IMG/VR virus record: IMGVR_UViG_2778261417_000010
Source of the DNA: a virus
Lineage: Duplodnaviria; Heunggongvirae; Uroviricota; Caudoviricetes
Strand: one strand, 5' to 3'
Length of the DNA stretch: 20,995 bases
Below, one piece after another: positions 584 to 11,122 of this stretch (positions are counted from its first letter, which is position 1; every line of letters starts with the position of its first letter). The translations under genes were made by a program, and so were the position numbers. The notes beneath the pieces were generated by a model, which made no database searches, was not told where the DNA came from, and saw only the letters and a list, made by a program, of their open reading frames with translations.

Positions 584-1597
584 TTACTCTACTGTGGACA
601 CTGTGTGGACACTCTCGACCTCAGTACCACCTCTTAGCGGATTAAGAGAAATGGCGTCCTGAAGGTACTCTGGCGCAAAATGAGCGTAAACCATAGTTTG
701 CTCAATCCGCGTGTGACCTAGTATCCGTTGTAGCGTGATAATACTTCCTCCATTAATCATGAAATGAGTGGCAAAGCTGTGCCTTAGTGCATGTGTAGCT
801 TGCCCCATTGGCAAATCCGGTTTTATTGCTTTCATTGTTCGTCTGAAGCGAGGGTAATCAGCATCAGGGAATAAAAAACCTCGTTTGTTATCCGCGATCA
901 TTTTGGCAACAGCCTCTGAGATCGGGACGGTGCGTGGTTTGTTTGTTTTCGTTTTAACAAACGTGACGCGGTTATGGATGATATTTTCTGCTTTCAAACG
1001 AGCTGCTTCTCCCCAACGTGCTCCAGTACTCAGGCAAAGAATCGCAATCTTTTTGTTGTCGCCGTCAAGAGCAGCAAGCAGTAAGGCAATTTCTTCCTGC
1101 GTGAGATAGCCTGTGTCTGGTTTTTCCTCCTTAAGCCTTTTTGTCCCTCTGATAGGGTGCTCACCAAAGAATAACTCCGCTTCAATCAGGGCTGTAAACA
1201 TGCCGCTAATACATGTTAAATCACGATTGATACTCGAAGGTTTAATACCCTGACTTCTTCGGGTGGCGCAGTACTGGCTGATAAGCGATTTCGTAATTTG
1301 AAATGCGCATGGGTCATTCGTTATTTTTGTGAAGATTTCAATTTTCCCAAGATTAGATTTCCCATGCTCTTCGTGTTTACCCTTTAAATCCCACCAGATC
1401 TGTGTCAGCTCCGACAGACGTCGCTTGTCTGTTGGTTTTGATAGCCATTCTTTATTGTGGTGGTTGTACAACGTGTATTTCTCGAAAGCGACAGCTTCGC
1501 TTTTCTTATCAAACTTCCTACGGATGCGTTTTCCATTACGTCCAGTAGGGCGGATGTCCACTTCATATCGACCATCATCGAGTTTTTTGATTGCCAT
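584..1597 (-). CDS. int: tyrosine integrase (P2 Int-like)
   Basis: 337-aa ORF, ATG start preceded by GGAGGG. Sequence MAIKKLDDGRYEVDIRPTG...HALRHSFATHFMINGGSIITLQRILGHTRIEQTMVYAH carries the tyrosine-recombinase R..H..R..Y C-terminal catalytic region. Length equals P2 Int as recalled. Confidence 0.95.
   Translation of the reverse strand: MAIKKLDDGRYEVDIRPTGRNGKRIRRKFDKKSEAVAFEKYTLYNHHNKEWLSKPTDKRRLSELTQIWWDLKGKHEEHGKSNLGKIEIFTKITNDPCAFQITKSLISQYCATRRSQGIKPSSINRDLTCISGMFTALIEAELFFGEHPIRGTKRLKEEKPDTGYLTQEEIALLLAALDGDNKKIAILCLSTGARWGEAARLKAENIIHNRVTFVKTKTNKPRTVPISEAVAKMIADNKRGFLFPDADYPRFRRTMKAIKPDLPMGQATHALRHSFATHFMINGGSIITLQRILGHTRIEQTMVYAHFAPEYLQDAISLNPLRGGTEVESVHTVSTVE
593..612. repeat. tandem direct repeat TGTGGACAC x2 at the int 3' end; candidate Int arm-type binding sites
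   Basis: TGTGGACAC at 593-601 and 604-612, read directly. Overlaps the last codons of int (..HTVSTVE). Assignment as arm sites is inference. Confidence 0.3.
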
Positions 1598-1712: not shown

Positions 1713-2012
1713 TTAACCAGTCTTTTGACCGGAGTGGGGCGACGTTGTTTCGTTTTGCCCAAAGTGTGCGAGAGCGGGCGCAATTTGCCCGGACTCAGGA
1801 GCGATCTGATTGGTCATGAACCATAAAGTGTATTTGGTGAATTGTGGGGTCTGCAGGATGTTCATCATGACATCTGTTGGAGGTGTTGAACGACCACTTT
1901 CATAGTAACTCAGCGTGCCATACGGAACCCCTGTTAAATCAGCAAGTTGTTGTCTGCTCAAATACTCTGATTTTCGCATTAAGACTATCTTCTCGCTTAT
2001 CGTGTTTGACAT
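1713..2012 (-). CDS. C: immunity repressor (P2 C-like)
   Basis: 99-aa ORF upstream of and co-oriented with int. N-terminal helix-turn-helix-like segment (SRQQLADLTGVPYGTLSYYESG). Length and position match P2 C. Confidence 0.9.
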   Translation of the reverse strand: MSNTISEKIVLMRKSEYLSRQQLADLTGVPYGTLSYYESGRSTPPTDVMMNILQTPQFTKYTLWFMTNQIAPESGQIAPALAHFGQNETTSPHSGQKTG

Positions 2013-3894: not shown

Positions 3895-4166
3895 GTATTC
3901 GTATTGAAATTGGCGAACGTTATGTCGTTACCAGTGACAGCTTTCAGTTTATTCTCCACGAGAAAAAGAGAGCGGAAAGCGGTAAAAACGCCGGTCAGGA
4001 ATGGCTGTCGGTGGTTGGTTATTACCCGAAATTAAGCCAGCTCGTTTCCGGCATGATGCATCACGATATTCTGACCGGAAGCGCAAAGTCTTTTGCTGAT
4101 TTAAACGCGCAGGTTGAGCAACTCAGCAAGCGTTGTTCAGAGGCTTTTGGCTCATATGGCCGTTAA
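3891..4166 (+). CDS. hypothetical early protein (P2 orf83 position)
   Basis: 91-aa ORF, ATGA overlap with the upstream gene. Assigned by synteny. Confidence 0.65.
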   Translation: MSIRIEIGERYVVTSDSFQFILHEKKRAESGKNAGQEWLSVVGYYPKLSQLVSGMMHHDILTGSAKSFADLNAQVEQLSKRCSEAFGSYGR

Positions 4167-6426
4167 AGCCTCCGGGCGTTTTGTCCCTCCATCAGCATTT
4201 GCCGCAGGCACCGGTAAGGCGTTTACCGGTGCTTATGCATGGAACGCGCCACGCGAGGCTGTCGGGCGCGAAAGACCCCTTACACGTGACGAGATGCGTC
4301 AGGTGCAAGGTGTTTTATCCACGATTAACCGCCTGCCTTACTTTTTGCGCTCGCTGTTTACTTCACGCTATGACTACATCCGGCGCAATAAAAGCCCGGT
4401 GCACGGGTTTTATTTCCTCACATCCACTTTTCAGCGTCGTTTATGGCCGCGCATTGAGCGCGTGAATCAGCGCCATGAAATGAACACCGACGCGTCGTTG
4501 CTGTTTCTGGCAGAGCGTGACCATTATGCGCGTCTGCCGGGGATGAATGACAAGGAACTGAAAAAGTTTGCCGCCCGTATCTCATCGCAGCTTTTCATGA
4601 TGTATGAGGAACTCTGCGATGCATGGGTTGATGCACATGGCGAGAAAGAATCGCTGTTTACGGATGAGGCTCAGGCGCATCTGTATGGTCATGTTGCTGG
4701 CGCTGCACGAGCTTTCAATATTTCCCCTCTCTACTGGAAAAAATACCGTAAAGGACAGATGACCACGAGGCAGGCATATTCTGCCATTGCCCGTCTGTTT
4801 AACGATGAGTGGTGGACTCATCAGCTTAAAGGTCAGCGTATGCGCTGGCATGAGGCGTTACTGATTGCTGTCGGGGAGGTGAATAAAGACCGTTCTCCTT
4901 ATGCCAGTAAACATGCCATTCGTGATGTGCGTGCGCGCCGCCAGGCAAATCTGGAATTTCTTAAATCGTGTGACCTTGAAAACAGGGAAACCGGCGAGCG
5001 CATCGACCTTATCAGTAAGGTGATGGGAAGTATTTCTAATCCTGAAATTCGCCGGATGGAGCTGATGAACACCATTGCCGGTATTGAGCGTTACGCCGCC
5101 GCAGAGGGTGATGTGGGGATGTTTATCACGCTGACCGCGCCGTCAAAGTATCACCCGACACGTCAGGTCGGAAAAGGTGAAAGTAAAACCGTCCAGCTAA
5201 ATCACGGCTGGAACGATGAGGCATTTAATCCAAAGGATGCGCAGCGTTATCTCTGCCGCATCTGGAGCCTGATGCGCACGGCATTCAAGGATAATGATTT
5301 ACAGGTCTACGGTTTGCGTGTCGTCGAGCCACACCACGACGGAACGCCGCACTGGCATATGATGCTTTTTTGTAATCCACGTCAGCGTAACCAGATTATC
5401 GAAACCATGCGTCGCTACGCGCTCAAAGAGGATGGCGACGAAAGAGGAGCCGAGCGAAACCGTTTTCAGGCGAAACACCTTAACCGGGGCGGTGCTGCGG
5501 GGTATATCGCGAAATACATTTCAAAAAATATCGACGGCTATGCACTGGATGGTCAGCTCGATAACGATACCGGCAGACCTCTGAAAGATACTGCCGCGGC
5601 TGTTACTGCATGGGCGTCAACGTGGCGCATCCCGCAATTTAAAACGGTTGGTCTGCCGACAATGGGGGCTTACCGTGAACTACGCAAATTGCCTCGCGGC
5701 GTCAGCATTGCTGATGAGTTTGACGAACGCGTCGAGGCTGCACGCGCTGCCGCAGACAGTGGCGATTTTGCGTTGTATATCAGTGCGCAGGGTGGGGCAA
5801 ATGTTCCGCGCGATTGCCAGACTGTCAGAGTCGCCCGTAGCCCGTCGGATGAAGTTAACGAGTACGAGGAAGAAGTCGAGAGAGTGGTCGGCATTTACGC
5901 GCCGCATCTCGGCGCGCGTCATATTCATATCACCAGAACGACGGACTGGCGCATTGTTCCGAAAGTTCCGGTCGTGGAGCCTTTAACTTTAAAAAGCGGC
6001 ATCGCCGCGCCTCGGAGTCCTGTCAATAACTGTGGAAAGCTCACCAGTGGTGATACTTCGTTACCGGCTCCCACACCTTCTGAGCACGTCGCAGCAGTGC
6101 TTAATCTGGTTGATGACGGTGTTATCGAATGGAATGACCCGGAGGTCGTGAGGGCGCTCAGGGGCGCATTAAAACACGGACTGAGAACACCAAATCGTCA
6201 GCAAAGAGCCGGAAGCCCGTTAAAACCGCATGAAATAGCACCGTCGGCCAGACTGACCCGGTCGGAACGATTGCAAATTACCCGTATCCGCGTTGACCTC
6301 GCTCAGAACGGTATCAGGCCGCAACGATGGGAGCTTGAGGTGCTGGCGCGTGGCGCGACCGTAAATTATGACGGGAAAAAATTCACGTATCCGGTCACTG
6401 ATGAGTGGCCGGGGTTTGTGGATTAA
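4156..6426 (+). CDS. A: replication initiation endonuclease A (rolling-circle nicking protein)
   Basis: ORF track start 4114 is TTG. ATG 4156 (MAVKASGRF...) follows GAGG and overlaps the upstream stop by 11 nt. Contains HUH-type motif HWHMMLF (~5351-5368) and active-site tyrosine pair in GYIAKYISK (~5503-5526). Confidence 0.9.
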   Translation: MAVKASGRFVPPSAFAAGTGKAFTGAYAWNAPREAVGRERPLTRDEMRQVQGVLSTINRLPYFLRSLFTSRYDYIRRNKSPVHGFYFLTSTFQRRLWPRIERVNQRHEMNTDASLLFLAERDHYARLPGMNDKELKKFAARISSQLFMMYEELCDAWVDAHGEKESLFTDEAQAHLYGHVAGAARAFNISPLYWKKYRKGQMTTRQAYSAIARLFNDEWWTHQLKGQRMRWHEALLIAVGEVNKDRSPYASKHAIRDVRARRQANLEFLKSCDLENRETGERIDLISKVMGSISNPEIRRMELMNTIAGIERYAAAEGDVGMFITLTAPSKYHPTRQVGKGESKTVQLNHGWNDEAFNPKDAQRYLCRIWSLMRTAFKDNDLQVYGLRVVEPHHDGTPHWHMMLFCNPRQRNQIIETMRRYALKEDGDERGAERNRFQAKHLNRGGAAGYIAKYISKNIDGYALDGQLDNDTGRPLKDTAAAVTAWASTWRIPQFKTVGLPTMGAYRELRKLPRGVSIADEFDERVEAARAAADSGDFALYISAQGGANVPRDCQTVRVARSPSDEVNEYEEEVERVVGIYAPHLGARHIHITRTTDWRIVPKVPVVEPLTLKSGIAAPRSPVNNCGKLTSGDTSLPAPTPSEHVAAVLNLVDDGVIEWNDPEVVRALRGALKHGLRTPNRQQRAGSPLKPHEIAPSARLTRSERLQITRIRVDLAQNGIRPQRWELEVLARGATVNYDGKKFTYPVTDEWPGFVD

Positions 6427-6471
6427 ACTTATTGATAAATAATGTGTCAAGATAACGCCAGGTAATTATAT

Positions 6472-6909
6472 ATGGTAAGAGTTTGCATTGATAAGAAAGG
6501 GAATGTTATCACCGATATCTCTTTGGGAGTCGGGGATTTTGAAGATTGTTGTAGCGTAGCAGAGGAGAAGTATAATCAGGCACTTTGCAGTAATTTTGTG
6601 AGTGTGGTGGCAGTGGTGAATGACGATAATGAGAAAATAGGTTTTTGTTCATTCATCATTGAATCTACAGAGGACGCTGTAATATATCAAATCGATTATG
6701 TTTGGGTTAAGCAAAGTGAGCGGGGACAAGGGTTATCAAAATTAATGATTCCTTATGTGGCTCAAGAGCTTATTTCTATTTATAAAGACTTGCTTGGAAA
6801 GTATTCATTTGGTGATATATGTCTTTGTGATAATTCTGTTTATATATCGGATGGAGGGGCTGTTTTTGGTCGAGGGGTAAAGGGATTCACCTTTAATGTA
6901 ATTAAGTAA
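6472..6909 (+). CDS. small GNAT-like N-acetyltransferase (cargo gene in the A-cos hotspot)
   Basis: 145-aa ORF in a conspicuously AT-rich island. Beta strand IYQIDYVWV followed by RGQGLSKLM fits the GNAT motif-A acetyl-CoA pyrophosphate loop (R/Q-x-x-G-x-G/A/S). No obvious SD before ATG 6472. Family call from motif only. Confidence 0.55.
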   Translation: MVRVCIDKKGNVITDISLGVGDFEDCCSVAEEKYNQALCSNFVSVVAVVNDDNEKIGFCSFIIESTEDAVIYQIDYVWVKQSERGQGLSKLMIPYVAQELISIYKDLLGKYSFGDICLCDNSVYISDGGAVFGRGVKGFTFNVIK

Positions 6910-6950
6910 TTCCGGGTGAAATGAAAAAGATATCTCAATGTTTGAGATGG

Positions 6951-7004
6951 AACAAATTTAAGAAACTCCGCCGGTGCTGAAACTTGCTTTCAGTGCTGGC
7001 GGAG
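6951..7004 (-). terminator. candidate intrinsic terminator for the 143-aa cargo gene; hairpin also foldable on the plus transcript
   Basis: Hairpin 6966-7004 (CTCCGCCGGTGCTGAAA / loop CTTGC / TTTCAGTGCTGGCGGAG) starts 14 nt past the minus-gene stop. On the minus strand it is followed by a U-rich run (complement of 6951-6965). On plus RNA the stem is 17 bp with three G-U pairs but no U-tract. Confidence 0.4.
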
Positions 7005-7017
7005 GTGAAGTAAGGCG

Positions 7018-7449
7018 TTAGCTAGTTATCAGATTGACACCGAGGGTAAGCAGGTTTGTTACTGCACCGGCAATAACACCAGGTGTCCCGTCCTTCACTG
7101 CGCTGATAATCTTATCTCCCATCGTTTCATTACCGCCAAGTGCTTCGGGTTTTTTGTTGAGCACCGCGAGTGCTTTCTCGGTCAGTCGCACATCATGAAA
7201 ACCGGTCTGATGGTCTGTTCCGTACAGAATATAGCCGTTTTCGCTTAAGAAAGTGAATGTGCCATCAACCACACTACGCAACTGATTCAGTGCTTTCATT
7301 TCTGGTGAGTTAAGTTGGTCAAAGTAGTCATCAGGTAACGCGGCGTTAAATTTTTTGTAGGTGATGACTTGTGGTACAGGAAAGTTATCCCATAGCACCG
7401 CAAAGATTTCTGCCGTCTGTTGGTTGAATAATTCGAGATTTTTGGACAT
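7018..7449 (-). CDS. hypothetical protein, 143 aa, hydrophobic glycine-rich C-terminus (cargo gene in the A-cos hotspot)
   Basis: ATG (plus CAT 7447-7449) with AAGGGA about 9 nt upstream on the minus strand. AT-rich. C-terminal GTPGVIAGAVTNLLTLGVNLI is glycine-zipper-like. No family recognised. Confidence 0.65.
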   Translation of the reverse strand: MSKNLELFNQQTAEIFAVLWDNFPVPQVITYKKFNAALPDDYFDQLNSPEMKALNQLRSVVDGTFTFLSENGYILYGTDHQTGFHDVRLTEKALAVLNKKPEALGGNETMGDKIISAVKDGTPGVIAGAVTNLLTLGVNLITS

Positions 7450-7510
7450 GCATAGTTCCCTTTCATCAATTAAAGACCCTTATGCCGACTGGGCAAAGAG
7501 GCTAACTGTA

Positions 7511-7642
7511 ATGGCCTCAAATAACGACCTGAGCTCACGCGAGGTGGACAGTTACACTGAAAAAATGGTTGAACAAGCCAGTAAAGATGAGCTTATGGTC
7601 GTTATAAAATACCTGTTAAATCACATCAGAATGAGTAAATAA
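7511..7642 (+). CDS. possible small ORF (43 aa) divergent from the 143-aa gene
   Basis: ATG 7511 with AAGAGG (7496-7501) 9 nt upstream; MASNNDLSSREVDSYTEKMVEQASKDELMVVIKYLLNHIRMSK. Could instead be the untranslated promoter region of the minus-strand gene. Confidence 0.3.
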   Translation: MASNNDLSSREVDSYTEKMVEQASKDELMVVIKYLLNHIRMSK

Positions 7643-7782
7643 AATGATCTATATCAAGATGTTATCTCACATTTATGAAAGTCCGTGGACAACGATTTTT
7701 CTGCTAATTGTTGTCAGTACGTGCCTCAACAGTGTGATTGGTGCATTGCGCGGCCAGTGACAACTATAAAAATTGATCAGAA

Positions 7783-7808
7783 CCGGCACCATGAATGCCG
7801 GTTTTTTT
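7783..7808 (+). terminator. rho-independent terminator upstream of cos
   Basis: CCGGCA (7783-7788) / loop CCATGAA / TGCCGG (7796-7801) followed by TTTTTTT (7802-7808). Confidence 0.6.
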
Positions 7809-7953
7809 GTGCTTTTTCTGTGATATCCCCGTTTTTATCTGTGCATGGTTTTGCATGTGCCGGAGTTACATGTTCTGGCTGTGCGTCCGCCAGGACTGGC
7901 GTGGCTCAAAAGCGGTATTGCAACTGCATTAAAACCGCCCCATGAAGCGGGCG

Positions 7954-7972
7954 GGCGAGGCGGGGAAAGCAC
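7954..7972. other. cos: cos site (19-nt cohesive end sequence of P2-type phages)
   Basis: GGCGAGGCGGGGAAAGCAC matches the P2 cohesive-end sequence as I recall it. Located just upstream of the Q gene end, as expected for cos in a P2 prophage. Confidence 0.7.
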
Positions 7973-8115
7973 TGCGCGCTGGCGGTGGTGCTGATTTTAT
8001 TTTTTCAGCGTCTGAGCGCGTCGTGACGGCGTTTAGTCTGCCCGTTGGGGGCGTTGGTGTGTCTGCGGGCTGTTTTGTGCTGTGGTGAGCGTGTGAGGGC
8101 GTGATGACGGGATGT

Positions 8116-8137
8116 AAAAAAGCCGCCCGCAGGCGGC
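8116..8137 (-). terminator. rho-independent terminator downstream of Q
   Basis: On the minus strand GCCGCC / loop TGCG / GGCGGC followed by TTTTTT (plus-strand A-run 8116-8121), beginning 6 nt after the Q stop. Confidence 0.55.
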
Positions 8138-8142
8138 GATGT

Positions 8143-9177
8143 TCAGCCGTTGTCAGTGTCCAGTGAGTAGTTTTTAAAGCGGATGACCTCCTGACCGAGC
8201 CAGCCGTTTATCTCGCGGATCCTGTCCTGTAACGGGATAAGCTCATTGCGGACAAAGACCTTTGCCACTTTCTCAATATCTCCCAGTGACCCGACGTTCT
8301 CCGGCTTGCCGCCCATCAACTGAAAGGGGATACGGTGCGCGTCCAGCAGGTCAGCGGCGCTGGCTTTTTTGATATTAAAAAAATCGTCCTTCGTTGCCAC
8401 TTCACTGAGCGGGATAATTTTAATGCCGTCGGCTTTCCCCTGTGGGGCATAGAGAAACAGATTTTTAAAGTTATTGCGGCCTTTCGACTTAACCATGTTT
8501 TCGCGAAGCATTTCGATATCGTTGCGGTCCTGCACGGCATCGGTGACGTACATGATGTATCCGGCATGTGCGCCGTTTTCGTAATACTTGCGGCGGAACA
8601 GCGTGGCCGACTCATTCAGCCAGGCAGAGTTAAGGGCGCTGAGATATTCCGGCAGGCCGTACAGCTCCTGATTAATATCAGGCTCCAGCAGGTGAAACAC
8701 GGAGCCGGGCGCGAAGGCTGTCGGCTCGTTGAAGGACGGCACCCACCAGTAAACATCCTCCTCCACGCCACGACGGGTATATTTGGCCGGTGAGGTTTCC
8801 AGTCTGATGACCTTACCGGTGGTGCTGTAACGCTTTTCCAGAAACGCATTACCAAACACCAGAAAATCCAGCACAAAGCGGCTGAAATCCTGCTGGGACA
8901 GCCACGGATGCGGGATAAATGTCGAGGCCAGAATATTACGTTTGACGTAAATCGGTGAGCTGTGATGCACGGCAGCACGCAGGCTTTTTGCCAGACCGGT
9001 AAAGCTGACCGGTGGCTCATACCATCTGCCGTTACTGATGCACTCGACGTAATCCAGAATGTCACGGCGGTCGAGTACCGGCACCGGCTCACCAAAGGTG
9101 AATGCCTCCATTTTCGGGGCGCTGGCGGTCATTTTTTTTGCCGCAGGTTGCGGTGTTTTCCCTTTTTTCTTGCTCAT
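8143..9177 (-). CDS. Q: capsid portal protein
   Basis: 344-aa ORF, same length as P2 gpQ as recalled. ATGA overlap with the P stop. Located between cos and P. Confidence 0.95.
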   Translation of the reverse strand: MSKKKGKTPQPAAKKMTASAPKMEAFTFGEPVPVLDRRDILDYVECISNGRWYEPPVSFTGLAKSLRAAVHHSSPIYVKRNILASTFIPHPWLSQQDFSRFVLDFLVFGNAFLEKRYSTTGKVIRLETSPAKYTRRGVEEDVYWWVPSFNEPTAFAPGSVFHLLEPDINQELYGLPEYLSALNSAWLNESATLFRRKYYENGAHAGYIMYVTDAVQDRNDIEMLRENMVKSKGRNNFKNLFLYAPQGKADGIKIIPLSEVATKDDFFNIKKASAADLLDAHRIPFQLMGGKPENVGSLGDIEKVAKVFVRNELIPLQDRIREINGWLGQEVIRFKNYSLDTDNG

Positions 9178-10949
9178 CAGTAAAACTCCAGAATGGTGGA
9201 TGTCAGCGGGGTGCTGATACCGGCGGTGAGTGGCTCATTTAACAGGGCGTGCATGGTCGCCCAGGCGAGGTCGGCGTGGCTGGCTTCCTCGCTGCGGCTG
9301 GCCTCATAGGTGGCGCTGCGTCCGCTGCTGGTCATGGTCTTGCGGATAGCCATGAACGAGCTGGTGATGTCGGTGGCGCTGACGTCATATTCCAGACAGC
9401 CACGGCGGATAACGTCTTTGGCCTTGAGCACCATTGCGGTTTTCATTTCCGGCGTGTAGCGGATATCGCGCGCGGCGGGATAGAACGAGCGCACGAGCTG
9501 GAACACACCGACACCGAGGCCGGTGGCATCAATACCGATGTATTCAACGTTATATTTTTCGGTGAGTTTGCGGATGGATTCTGCCTGGGTGGCAAAGTCC
9601 ATGCCTTTCCACTGGTGACGCTCAAGGATCCTGAATTTGCCACCGGCCACCACCGGCGGTGCCAGTACCACGCATCCGGCGCTGTCGCCACGGTGTGACG
9701 GGTCGTAACCAATCCAGACCGGGCGGGAGCCGAACGGATTTGCGGCAAACGGCGCATAGTCTTCCCATTCTTCCAGCGTGTCGACCATGCAGCGTTGCAG
9801 CTCCTCGAACGGGAACACCGACGCCTTGTCGTCAACAAATTCACACATGAACAGGTTTTTAAAATCGTCGGCGCTGTTTTCACGTTTGAGCTGCTCAATG
9901 TCGAACAGCGTGCAACCACCTTTCAGGGCGTCCTCAATGGTGACAATCTGCCGCCACTGGCCGTCCGCACAGAGAAGCCCACCGGCAAGGGCGTTATGAC
10001 TGACGTCGATTTCCACGCGTTCGGCGGCGCTGGCGCGTCCCCGGTTGAACAGTTCACCCGACCAGAACGGGTAGGCGTCGTGCGCCAGCGTGGACGGGGT
10101 GGAGAAATAGGTCGAGCGCAGGTGACTCTGTGAGGCCATACCTGATGCCACCTTACGCAGTACCTGAAAATTCGGGATCCAGAAAATCTCGTCGACGTAC
10201 AGGTCGCCGTTATGGCTCTGTGCGGTGTTGGAGTTGGTGCCGAGAAAAATCAGTTTTGCGCCGTTATTGCCCAGGACAATCGGGTCACCGGTCAGGTCAA
10301 CGTCAACCAGCCGGGCAAAGGCGATGATGTATTCGCGGAACACATACGCCTGCGTTTTACTGGCCGACAGAAAAATCTGGTTATGACCGGTTTTCAGGGC
10401 ACGCAGCAGCGCCTCGCGGGAAAAATAAAACGTCGCGCCAATCTGGCGGGATTTCAGGATATCGCGGATGCGGTGCTCAAGCCCGGCGCGATACCAGTGC
10501 AACTGATATTCGAAAGACTGCTCAAAGAAAATCTGCTCCAGCTTTTCGATGGCCTCGTCACTGAAAAAATTCTTTTTTGGTTTGCGCCGCCCGCCTTTGT
10601 TGCGGTTAGCGACGTTCGGATTAAGGTCTGCCTCGTTGCCGGTCTGGCTGTAACGGTTTACCCGTGCCAGTCGTTCAATCTGGCGTCCCAGCAGGTCAAT
10701 TTCCTTGAAGTCACCGCCGGTTTTCTGCGGTTTGATGATGAGCTGGGTCAGCCGCGCTTCCAGACTCATTTCGACACGGCTGATGGGAGCAACGCTGTCC
10801 CAGCCGTCGCGCTGTTTCCAGCTCTGCACCGTCGGGCGTTTCATCTGCAACATGGCGGCAATCTGCGGCACGGAAAACCCCTGCCAGTACAGCAGCGCCG
10901 CCTGACGACGCGGGTCGTGTAAAAGAGTGGTGTCTGTGGTGATGGTCAT
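9177..10949 (-). CDS. P: terminase large (ATPase) subunit
   Basis: ORF track start 10979 is TTG. ATG at 10947-10949 (MTITTDTTLLHDP...) has GAGGT 5 nt upstream and gives 590 aa, the P2 gpP length as recalled. Confidence 0.95.
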   Translation of the reverse strand: MTITTDTTLLHDPRRQAALLYWQGFSVPQIAAMLQMKRPTVQSWKQRDGWDSVAPISRVEMSLEARLTQLIIKPQKTGGDFKEIDLLGRQIERLARVNRYSQTGNEADLNPNVANRNKGGRRKPKKNFFSDEAIEKLEQIFFEQSFEYQLHWYRAGLEHRIRDILKSRQIGATFYFSREALLRALKTGHNQIFLSASKTQAYVFREYIIAFARLVDVDLTGDPIVLGNNGAKLIFLGTNSNTAQSHNGDLYVDEIFWIPNFQVLRKVASGMASQSHLRSTYFSTPSTLAHDAYPFWSGELFNRGRASAAERVEIDVSHNALAGGLLCADGQWRQIVTIEDALKGGCTLFDIEQLKRENSADDFKNLFMCEFVDDKASVFPFEELQRCMVDTLEEWEDYAPFAANPFGSRPVWIGYDPSHRGDSAGCVVLAPPVVAGGKFRILERHQWKGMDFATQAESIRKLTEKYNVEYIGIDATGLGVGVFQLVRSFYPAARDIRYTPEMKTAMVLKAKDVIRRGCLEYDVSATDITSSFMAIRKTMTSSGRSATYEASRSEEASHADLAWATMHALLNEPLTAGISTPLTSTILEFY

Positions 10950-11122
10950 GAATACCTCGCCGTGATGAATACACGGCAAGGCTACTGAGTCGCGCCCCGC
11001 GATTCGCTAAGGTGCTGTTGTGTCAGTGATAAGCCATCCGGGACTGATGGCGGAGGATGCGCATCGTCGGGAAACTGATGCCGACATGTGACTCCTCTAA
11101 TCACTATTCAGGACTCCTGACA
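10950..11122. promoter_or_regulatory. divergent late-promoter region between P (leftward) and O (rightward)
   Basis: Intergenic region between divergent late operons; in P2 this holds the Ogr-dependent promoters PP and PO. I could not find an exact TGT-N12-ACA dyad, so the call is by position only. Confidence 0.35.

Follow-up and report, generated by a model that had tools for sequence, protein, structure and literature searches.

The 143-codon gene analysed here forms, with a much smaller gene on the opposite strand, a conserved head-to-head pair in a P2-like (Peduoviridae) E. coli prophage, and the best explanation for this pair is that the two genes constitute one mobile accessory cassette carried by temperate phages. 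The gene had been predicted previously to act on its own, as a defence effector made of a sensor-like N-terminal domain plus a membrane-disrupting tail, but it turned out to be one half of a conserved two-gene unit; its location on the minus strand, the divergent 64-aa partner and the P2-like hotspot context were all absent from that original prediction. By analogy with the staphylococcal Tha/Ith system, we propose that a protein made in lysogeny is coupled to an antagonist made in lytic growth through mutually exclusive expression, a reading to which we give somewhat less than even confidence. The features of the pair, in positions of the window (the whole stretch of 20,995 nucleotides that was analysed), are the following.

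6966-7004, minus strand: hairpin terminator of the large gene, with 17-nt arms, 14 nt past the stop
7018-7449, minus strand: large gene, 143 codons, ATG at 7449-7447 and TAA at 7020-7018; PHROG 2266
7447-7450, both strands: CATG, in which the two start codons share 2 nt (read from the sequence)
7448-7642, plus strand: small partner gene, 64 aa; PHROG 2454, predicted three-helix protein
7457-7463, minus strand: Shine-Dalgarno-like AAGGGAA of the large gene, 7-13 nt upstream and inside codons 4-6 of the small gene
7469-7496, minus strand: candidate sigma-70 promoter for the large gene, with TTGCCC and TTTAAT separated by 16 nt; it falls in the weakly conserved 5' portion of the small ORF

The large gene is a genuine gene, as had been claimed. 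In five copies that diverged to about 78% DNA identity, the variable columns at codon positions 1, 2 and 3 were 17, 7 and 68 of 143, a skew that denotes purifying selection, and full-length homologues are abundant. The signals noticed previously around it also stood up to scrutiny. The anti-Shine-Dalgarno duplex of the start had a predicted energy of -5.3 kcal/mol, where the random mean was about -1.5, and the hairpin near the 3' end was strong (-20.4 kcal/mol, z = -2.8) and followed by a U-rich tail on the minus strand only, so that read-through on the plus strand is allowed. This hairpin is also the left limit of the DNA that the window has in common with phages Midge and FSL SP-004 (query 532-538). 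The AT-rich composition was borne out by GC contents of 44.9% for the large ORF and 40.0% for its partner, compared with 52.8% for the whole window. The candidate promoter of the large gene, which is a consensus match only, obtained a position-weight score of 9.1, the 90th percentile of the background being 6.4; the enrichment of such consensus matches over background was modest (mean 4.97 vs 3.29). No comparable promoter for the small gene was found inside the large one (best score 3.2). In one JGI gene call, the large gene has been given 17 extra codons and runs over the start of its small partner (L018, 5001-5495).

The small gene showed a coding signature as well. In codons 22-64, the variable columns at the three codon positions were 8, 6 and 31 of 43, and its first 21 codons, although fast-evolving (12, 9 and 14 of 20), remained in frame throughout, a 3-nt indel included. 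The encoded protein matched PHROG 2454, a family with no functional annotation, with an E-value of 4e-38 over 64 of its 64 residues, and 160 homologous clusters were found. AlphaFold predicted helices at residues 11-24, 30-43 and 46-63 (pLDDT 81). The annotations of RefSeq and of phage Midge include the gene, except that RefSeq lacks this ORF in E. coli strain 4/1-1 and similar genomes (L019, 3921-4115). We also considered a start at the internal ATG at 7511, which has AAGAGG ahead of it, and rejected it as the general start: the methionine is replaced by leucine in Klebsiella and is absent in the Aeromonas copies, so that both need the full-length start, and the full frame is always open. This internal ATG could nevertheless be used in the window strain. 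The first 21 codons exist in two very different versions within Enterobacteriaceae (window 7450-7510 compared with L004 and L037), namely MHNSLSS..DPFADWAK and MQNSISSEGKWVKRW. Since this segment also holds the promoter and the leader of the large gene, the two versions may be alternative control regions.

The overlap of the two starts is conserved from E. coli to Pseudomonas. Among 65 pairs supported by HMM searches (Enterobacteriaceae, Pseudomonas and others), the starts were arranged as CATG in 61 and as CATATG in three, and the remaining pair was separated by a 17-nt gap. Across the pairs, a Shine-Dalgarno-like sequence of each gene lay inside the first codons of the other, with median duplex energies of -5.3 to -6.6 kcal/mol against random means of -1.5 to -2.1. 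As a consequence of the CATG overlap, each ribosome-binding site, plus the promoter of the large gene, is inside the other gene. The pair was present in all 44 close viral loci, and an HMM-supported small partner abutted the large gene in 18 of the 46 diverse genome loci (Pseudomonas, Pectobacterium, Kushneria and others); plausible small partners were seen too in phage PhiKM, Gulbenkiania and Bilophila. Large-protein homologues of only 27-30% identity, found in Pseudomonas, Aeromonas, Morganella and a metagenomic phage, were each accompanied by a divergent ORF of 69-80 aa at or overlapping the start of the large gene. The products of these ORFs were mutually homologous (blastp 1e-5 to 1e-14), and hhalign gave a weak but in-register alignment between them and the enterobacterial small proteins (P = 0.03). 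On the basis of these alignments, we consider it probable that the small partners are homologous across the whole family. Conversely, about 15 distant large-protein homologues (about a third) had no divergent ORF, and three of three look-ups begun from the small protein found a partner of about 145 aa adjacent to it. The fact that the large gene is alone in distant branches, and that the small gene was never seen without it, points to the large protein as the main actor. The linkage between PHROG 2266 and PHROG 2454 is recorded in neither family.

Two small, closely linked genes that travel jointly as one cassette, with a 5' antisense overlap as in some type I systems, might also suggest a toxin-antitoxin-like addiction module that stabilises the prophage. 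We regard this as very improbable. Neither the large nor the small protein matched any toxin or antitoxin family, the genes are divergent rather than co-transcribed, the large gene is alone in many genomes, and an addiction module would leave unexplained the orientation that the pair keeps with respect to lytic operons (see below).

The cassette lies between gpA and the portal gene, close to cos, within the following prophage genes of the window.

584-1597, minus strand: integrase
1713-2012, minus strand: C repressor-like gene
plus strand: cox-like gene and early operon
4114-6426, plus strand: replication endonuclease gpA
6472-6909, plus strand: lone GNAT-type acetyltransferase, 145 aa, between gpA and the pair
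7779-7812, plus strand: strong terminator-like hairpin with a 10-bp stem and a T-run (TTTTTTTGTGC after the stem), between the small gene and cos
8143-9177, minus strand: portal
9177-10979, minus strand: terminase, with the capsid and tail genes beyond

Rousset et al. (PMC9122126) reported the interval between gpA and the portal gene of P2-like phages to be a hotspot for anti-phage systems. E. coli chromosomes carry DNA nearly identical to that of the window, and the 625-bp core of the pair (7018-7642) was found in 79 of 5,426 complete genomes, as a single copy in each and always in the chromosome. The neighbours of the pair in the hotspot vary, and include a retron, an AAA_13 ATPase, a metallo-beta-lactamase-fold protein, a GNAT protein, DinI, and BRCT and WYL proteins. 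We considered whether the GNAT gene of the window could be a further member of the system. It matched Acetyltransf_1 with an E-value of 2e-4 (just above the cut-off of that family) and Acetyltransf_7 with one of 1e-5 (just below), and no antitoxin-like partner for it was evident. It is beside the pair in only 11 E. coli genomes, other cargo substituting for it elsewhere, and it was rejected as a member because the pair accompanies a retron, DinI, AAA_13 ATPase or metallo-beta-lactamase-fold gene instead. In other P2-like phages of E. coli and Klebsiella, the gene is replaced by a retron-like unit adjoining the pair and composed of a small ORF, an HTH protein and a reverse transcriptase (L003, 2428-3856; L004, 906-2334). 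In Yersinia ruckeri, a 740-aa AAA_13/SMC_N ATPase is encoded directly downstream of the large gene and in the same direction (L115, 289-2511), and the two might form one operon.

On the other side of the pair, GGCGAGGCGGGGAAAGCAC at 7954-7972 matches the 19-nt cohesive end of P2. Midge and FSL SP-004 have linear genomes that end near this position, so that the pair occupies the right-hand extremity of the packaged DNA. From the small gene to cos (7643-7950) there are about 300 nt of conserved non-coding DNA, with a 10-nt inverted repeat (7707-7716 and 7758-7767) and the strong terminator of the plus strand, at 7779-7805 when counted without its full T-run. An 86-codon ORF with a GTG start (7685-7945) matched no family and is probably not a gene. 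A search of 6300-8300 against Rfam gave nothing near threshold.

The orientation of the pair relative to the phage operons followed a common rule. The small gene was co-directional with the flanking lytic operon, irrespective of whether the pair was between the tail tube and tail chaperone genes, the large terminase and portal genes, the holin and terminase genes, cox and gpA, or gpA and cargo as in the window, and the large gene typically had the opposite strand to itself, its stop often facing that of the neighbouring gene. Of 42 distinct contexts, 30 had the gene beyond the large one oriented like the small gene. The sites themselves were diverse: the pair was found between the tail tube and tail chaperone genes in Pseudomonas, next to int in Aeromonas, and between cox and the early genes in Morganella. 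In the window, int and C are on the strand of the large gene, and cox, gpA and the GNAT gene are on that of the small one. In Aeromonas, cI, cargo, the large gene and int follow one another on one strand, with the end of the large gene overlapping the start of int by 4 nt and the small gene antisense.

This layout resembles that of tha and ith in phage 80alpha, where the lysogeny operon contains a defence gene that has a small antisense gene as its counterpart. Ith inhibits Tha, which spares the phage from the immunity that it encodes, and overlapping transcription has been demonstrated experimentally to make the two states of expression mutually exclusive (Rostol et al. 2024, PMC11087260). 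In both cases there is an accessory gene on the lysogeny strand and a small gene (about 65-80 aa) on the opposite strand, and the order cI, cargo, large gene, int and small antisense gene in Aeromonas mirrors the lysogeny operon of 80alpha. Gene order and strands place the large gene on the lysogeny strand, and the small one opposite it in an overlapping unit, in the window, Aeromonas, Pseudomonas and Morganella. The two systems also differ. Tha belongs to the HEPN RNases, but in the large protein, a predicted winged helix of 143 aa, neither a HEPN nor any other enzymatic domain was found, and the two are not related in sequence or fold. Among defence effectors, a protein of this length that lacks an enzymatic domain is unusual. 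Moreover, the genes described here overlap head-to-head by 2 nt at their starts, in contrast to a gene nested antisense in an operon.

According to the reading modelled on Tha/Ith, the large protein would be made from its own promoter during the prophage state, and the small three-helix protein would be made upon transcription of the lytic operon and would antagonise or replace the activity of the large one. Lytic read-through would yield an RNA antisense to the entire large gene, and the 5' leader of the large gene would be antisense to the start of the small one; by these two antisense effects, the expression of the two products would become mutually exclusive. The role of the system would be prophage exclusion or defence, switched off for the lytic growth of the phage itself. 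The analysis established the pair with its conservation and orientation rule, the fold and the character of the tail; we infer the timing of expression, the antagonism and the defence role, and the last of these is plausible given the hotspot location, the lysogeny-like orientation and the variable, defence-like neighbours. Of the defence effector originally predicted, what holds is a moron placed in the P2 anti-phage hotspot with a lysogeny-like orientation, and what is not supported is the mechanism by sensor and membrane tail. Going further, the pair could be a widespread and unrecognised immunity switch of Proteobacteria prophages, in which a non-enzymatic lysogen protein would block incoming phages (perhaps by sequestering a phage protein or through the release of its amphipathic hairpin at the C-terminus), a three-helix antidote would be made only in the lytic state and the 2-nt overlap would enforce exclusivity; in this extended form, we consider the proposal doubtful. 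The cassette is in no defence catalogue, and P2-like hotspots are a proven source of anti-phage systems. Overlapping head-to-head starts with each ribosome-binding site inside the other gene are, in addition, an unusual architecture. If the switch were true, the avoidance of autoimmunity by an antisense-coupled inhibitor, so far shown for Tha/Ith in staphylococcal phages, would extend to Gram-negative temperate phages and to an unrelated protein family, and there would be a simple genomic signature to find further pairs. For annotation, it should be borne in mind that the small gene is sometimes unannotated and that the large gene is sometimes given a wrong, extended start.

To characterise the large protein, we carried out similarity searches and structure prediction. 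It had no match in Pfam, NCBIfam or PADLOC, in keeping with the previous statement that no family could be recognised, but it aligned end-to-end with PHROG 2266 (E = 3.3e-61, residues 1-142 on positions 1-143 of a 144-position profile), itself without functional annotation. A word-indexed search found 71 clusters, all from Enterobacteriaceae and at least 60% identical to the large protein; an exhaustive profile search found at least 681 clusters (clustering at 50% identity) with E-values of 1e-3 or less, nearly all of 125-160 aa and aligned end-to-end. Among 48 relatives, Pfam gave two weak matches to DUF4364 and one to DUF6293_C, and PADLOC a single match at chance level. Neither the large nor the small protein matched PADLOC-DB 2.0, and literature searches for the protein accessions or the PHROG numbers found nothing. 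The alignment-based AlphaFold2 model (pLDDT 90.8, pTM 0.86) depicted a long helix at the N-terminus, then a winged-helix core and, at the C-terminus, two amphipathic helices folded as a hairpin (residues 110-120 and 123-142), so that the domain described previously as sensor-like is a generic winged helix and not a recognisable sensor. Foldseek gave no match in the PDB below E = 0.1. Several sub-threshold PDB matches to leucine-rich-repeat "repebody" proteins (E down to 5e-4) corresponded to one unit of about 24 residues within residues 36-74, and were treated as a chance motif because this segment is variable in the family and predicted to be helical. A Pfam match to RecJ_C (E = 0.012, 16 bits for a cut-off of 30) was also discarded as sub-threshold.

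A winged helix, with weak matches to PadR, MarR, ArsR, Rrf2 and CodY domains, and the position of the gene in a divergent pair with overlapping control regions, would be compatible with a transcription factor that autoregulates the divergent promoter region, with the small protein as its target or anti-repressor; the annotators of phage Midge did label it as a putative transcriptional regulator. Several observations make this rather doubtful. The predicted fold is shared with PadR- and MarR-like regulators, but the large protein has a pI of 4.9 and the family is acidic (median pI 5.1, with 167 of 188 members below 6). Furthermore, residues 35-59, which in a canonical winged helix form the DNA-reading surface (first half of helix 3), are variable in sequence and length and contain 20-40% Asp or Glu across the family, and the only conserved basic residues, K92 and K98, come after the wing. 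The Pfam HTH families were all below threshold, and there was no match to a curated HTH family in Pfam or NCBIfam. Finally, the cassette hops among tail, head, early and integrase regions in unrelated phages, and a core regulator would be unlikely to do so. From the model and the charge distribution, we consider that the large protein is a soluble acidic winged helix, more likely a binding protein for another protein than for DNA, and that it probably does not act on membranes either.

A small, acidic, non-enzymatic protein with an acidic variable insert, encoded at the extreme right end of the linear Midge and FSL SP-004 genomes, could alternatively be part of a counter-defence or host-takeover unit. 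The acidic protein would bind and block a host protein that interacts with nucleic acids or serves in defence, as Ocr or T7 gp5.5 does, and would be expressed from a constitutive promoter once the cos-proximal DNA has entered the cell, and the Midge annotation in GenBank does cite HHpred similarity to T7 gp5.5/5.7. This similarity was not reproduced here: hhalign gave probabilities of 0.1% for gp5.5 (DUF2675) and 1% for gp5.7, although a 48-sequence family profile against single-sequence templates is a weak test. In addition, the strand shared with cI and int in Aeromonas and the antisense position deep in late operons fit expression in lysogeny better than early in the lytic cycle. We therefore deem this alternative unlikely, and retain the reading of a lysogeny protein with a lytic antagonist.

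The C-terminal stretch GTPGVIAGAVTNLLTLGVNLITS was the basis of the membrane-acting mechanism put forward originally, in which the N-terminal domain would sense the infection and a glycine-zipper-like helix would insert into the inner membrane and permeabilise it, causing abortive infection. The stretch is real and has 23 uncharged residues, two Asn included, that are near-invariant on all faces within the enterobacterial subfamily, where the last 33 residues are the best-conserved part of the protein. It thus resembles glycine-zipper or tail-anchored peptides in being an uncharged, small-residue-rich C-terminal segment of about 20 residues with one GxxxG, and its Wimley-White octanol sum was slightly favourable (-2.4). 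Together with the location of the gene in a defence hotspot, these are the points in favour of a membrane effector. However, the GxxxG is single (G124-G128), the next in-register position being N132, and the repeated (G/A/S)xxxGxxxG motif is absent. The best 19-residue Kyte-Doolittle mean, on what is a crude scale, was 1.58, under the usual cut-off of 1.6, the Hessa apparent insertion energies summed to an unfavourable +3.8 kcal/mol (a simple sum, also on a crude scale), and no basic residues follow the segment. As the tail is below the transmembrane thresholds, the membrane reading is not supported.

The comparison with 188 family members less than 50% identical to the window protein pointed in the same direction. 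In these relatives the last helix is amphipathic, with charged residues at positions 123, 124, 127, 128, 131, 132 and 139 in 26-66% of them (26-56% if only 127, 128, 131, 132 and 139 are taken). Their median best Kyte-Doolittle mean was 0.89, only one of the 188 reached 1.6, and none had a Hessa sum of zero or less. The window protein and its relatives have in common a hydrophobic face (125, 126, 129, 130, 133, 134, 138, 140 and 141), and position 137, a glycine in the window protein, is a small residue in 92% of the relatives. The window tail also keeps a continuous polar face, formed by A127, G128, T131, N132, T135, N139 and T142. These alignments indicate that the tail is the amphipathic terminal helix of the family with its polar face neutralised by Gly, Thr, Asn and Ala, and no transmembrane glycine zipper. 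In the pTM 0.86 model, the tail is a confident helix within the fold, and the hydrophobic periodicity together with the high pTM suggests that it packs on the winged-helix domain. Both the amphipathicity analysis and the structure prediction, therefore, went against a membrane-disrupting tail, and we see an effector of this kind as quite improbable.

The small proteins of the Pseudomonas group (L006, L017, L018, L066-L070 and L082) have a Cys-rich end, such as MTPRCQCQCCRQC, which is absent in the enterobacterial, Aeromonas and Morganella versions and could be a metal-binding or modification motif.
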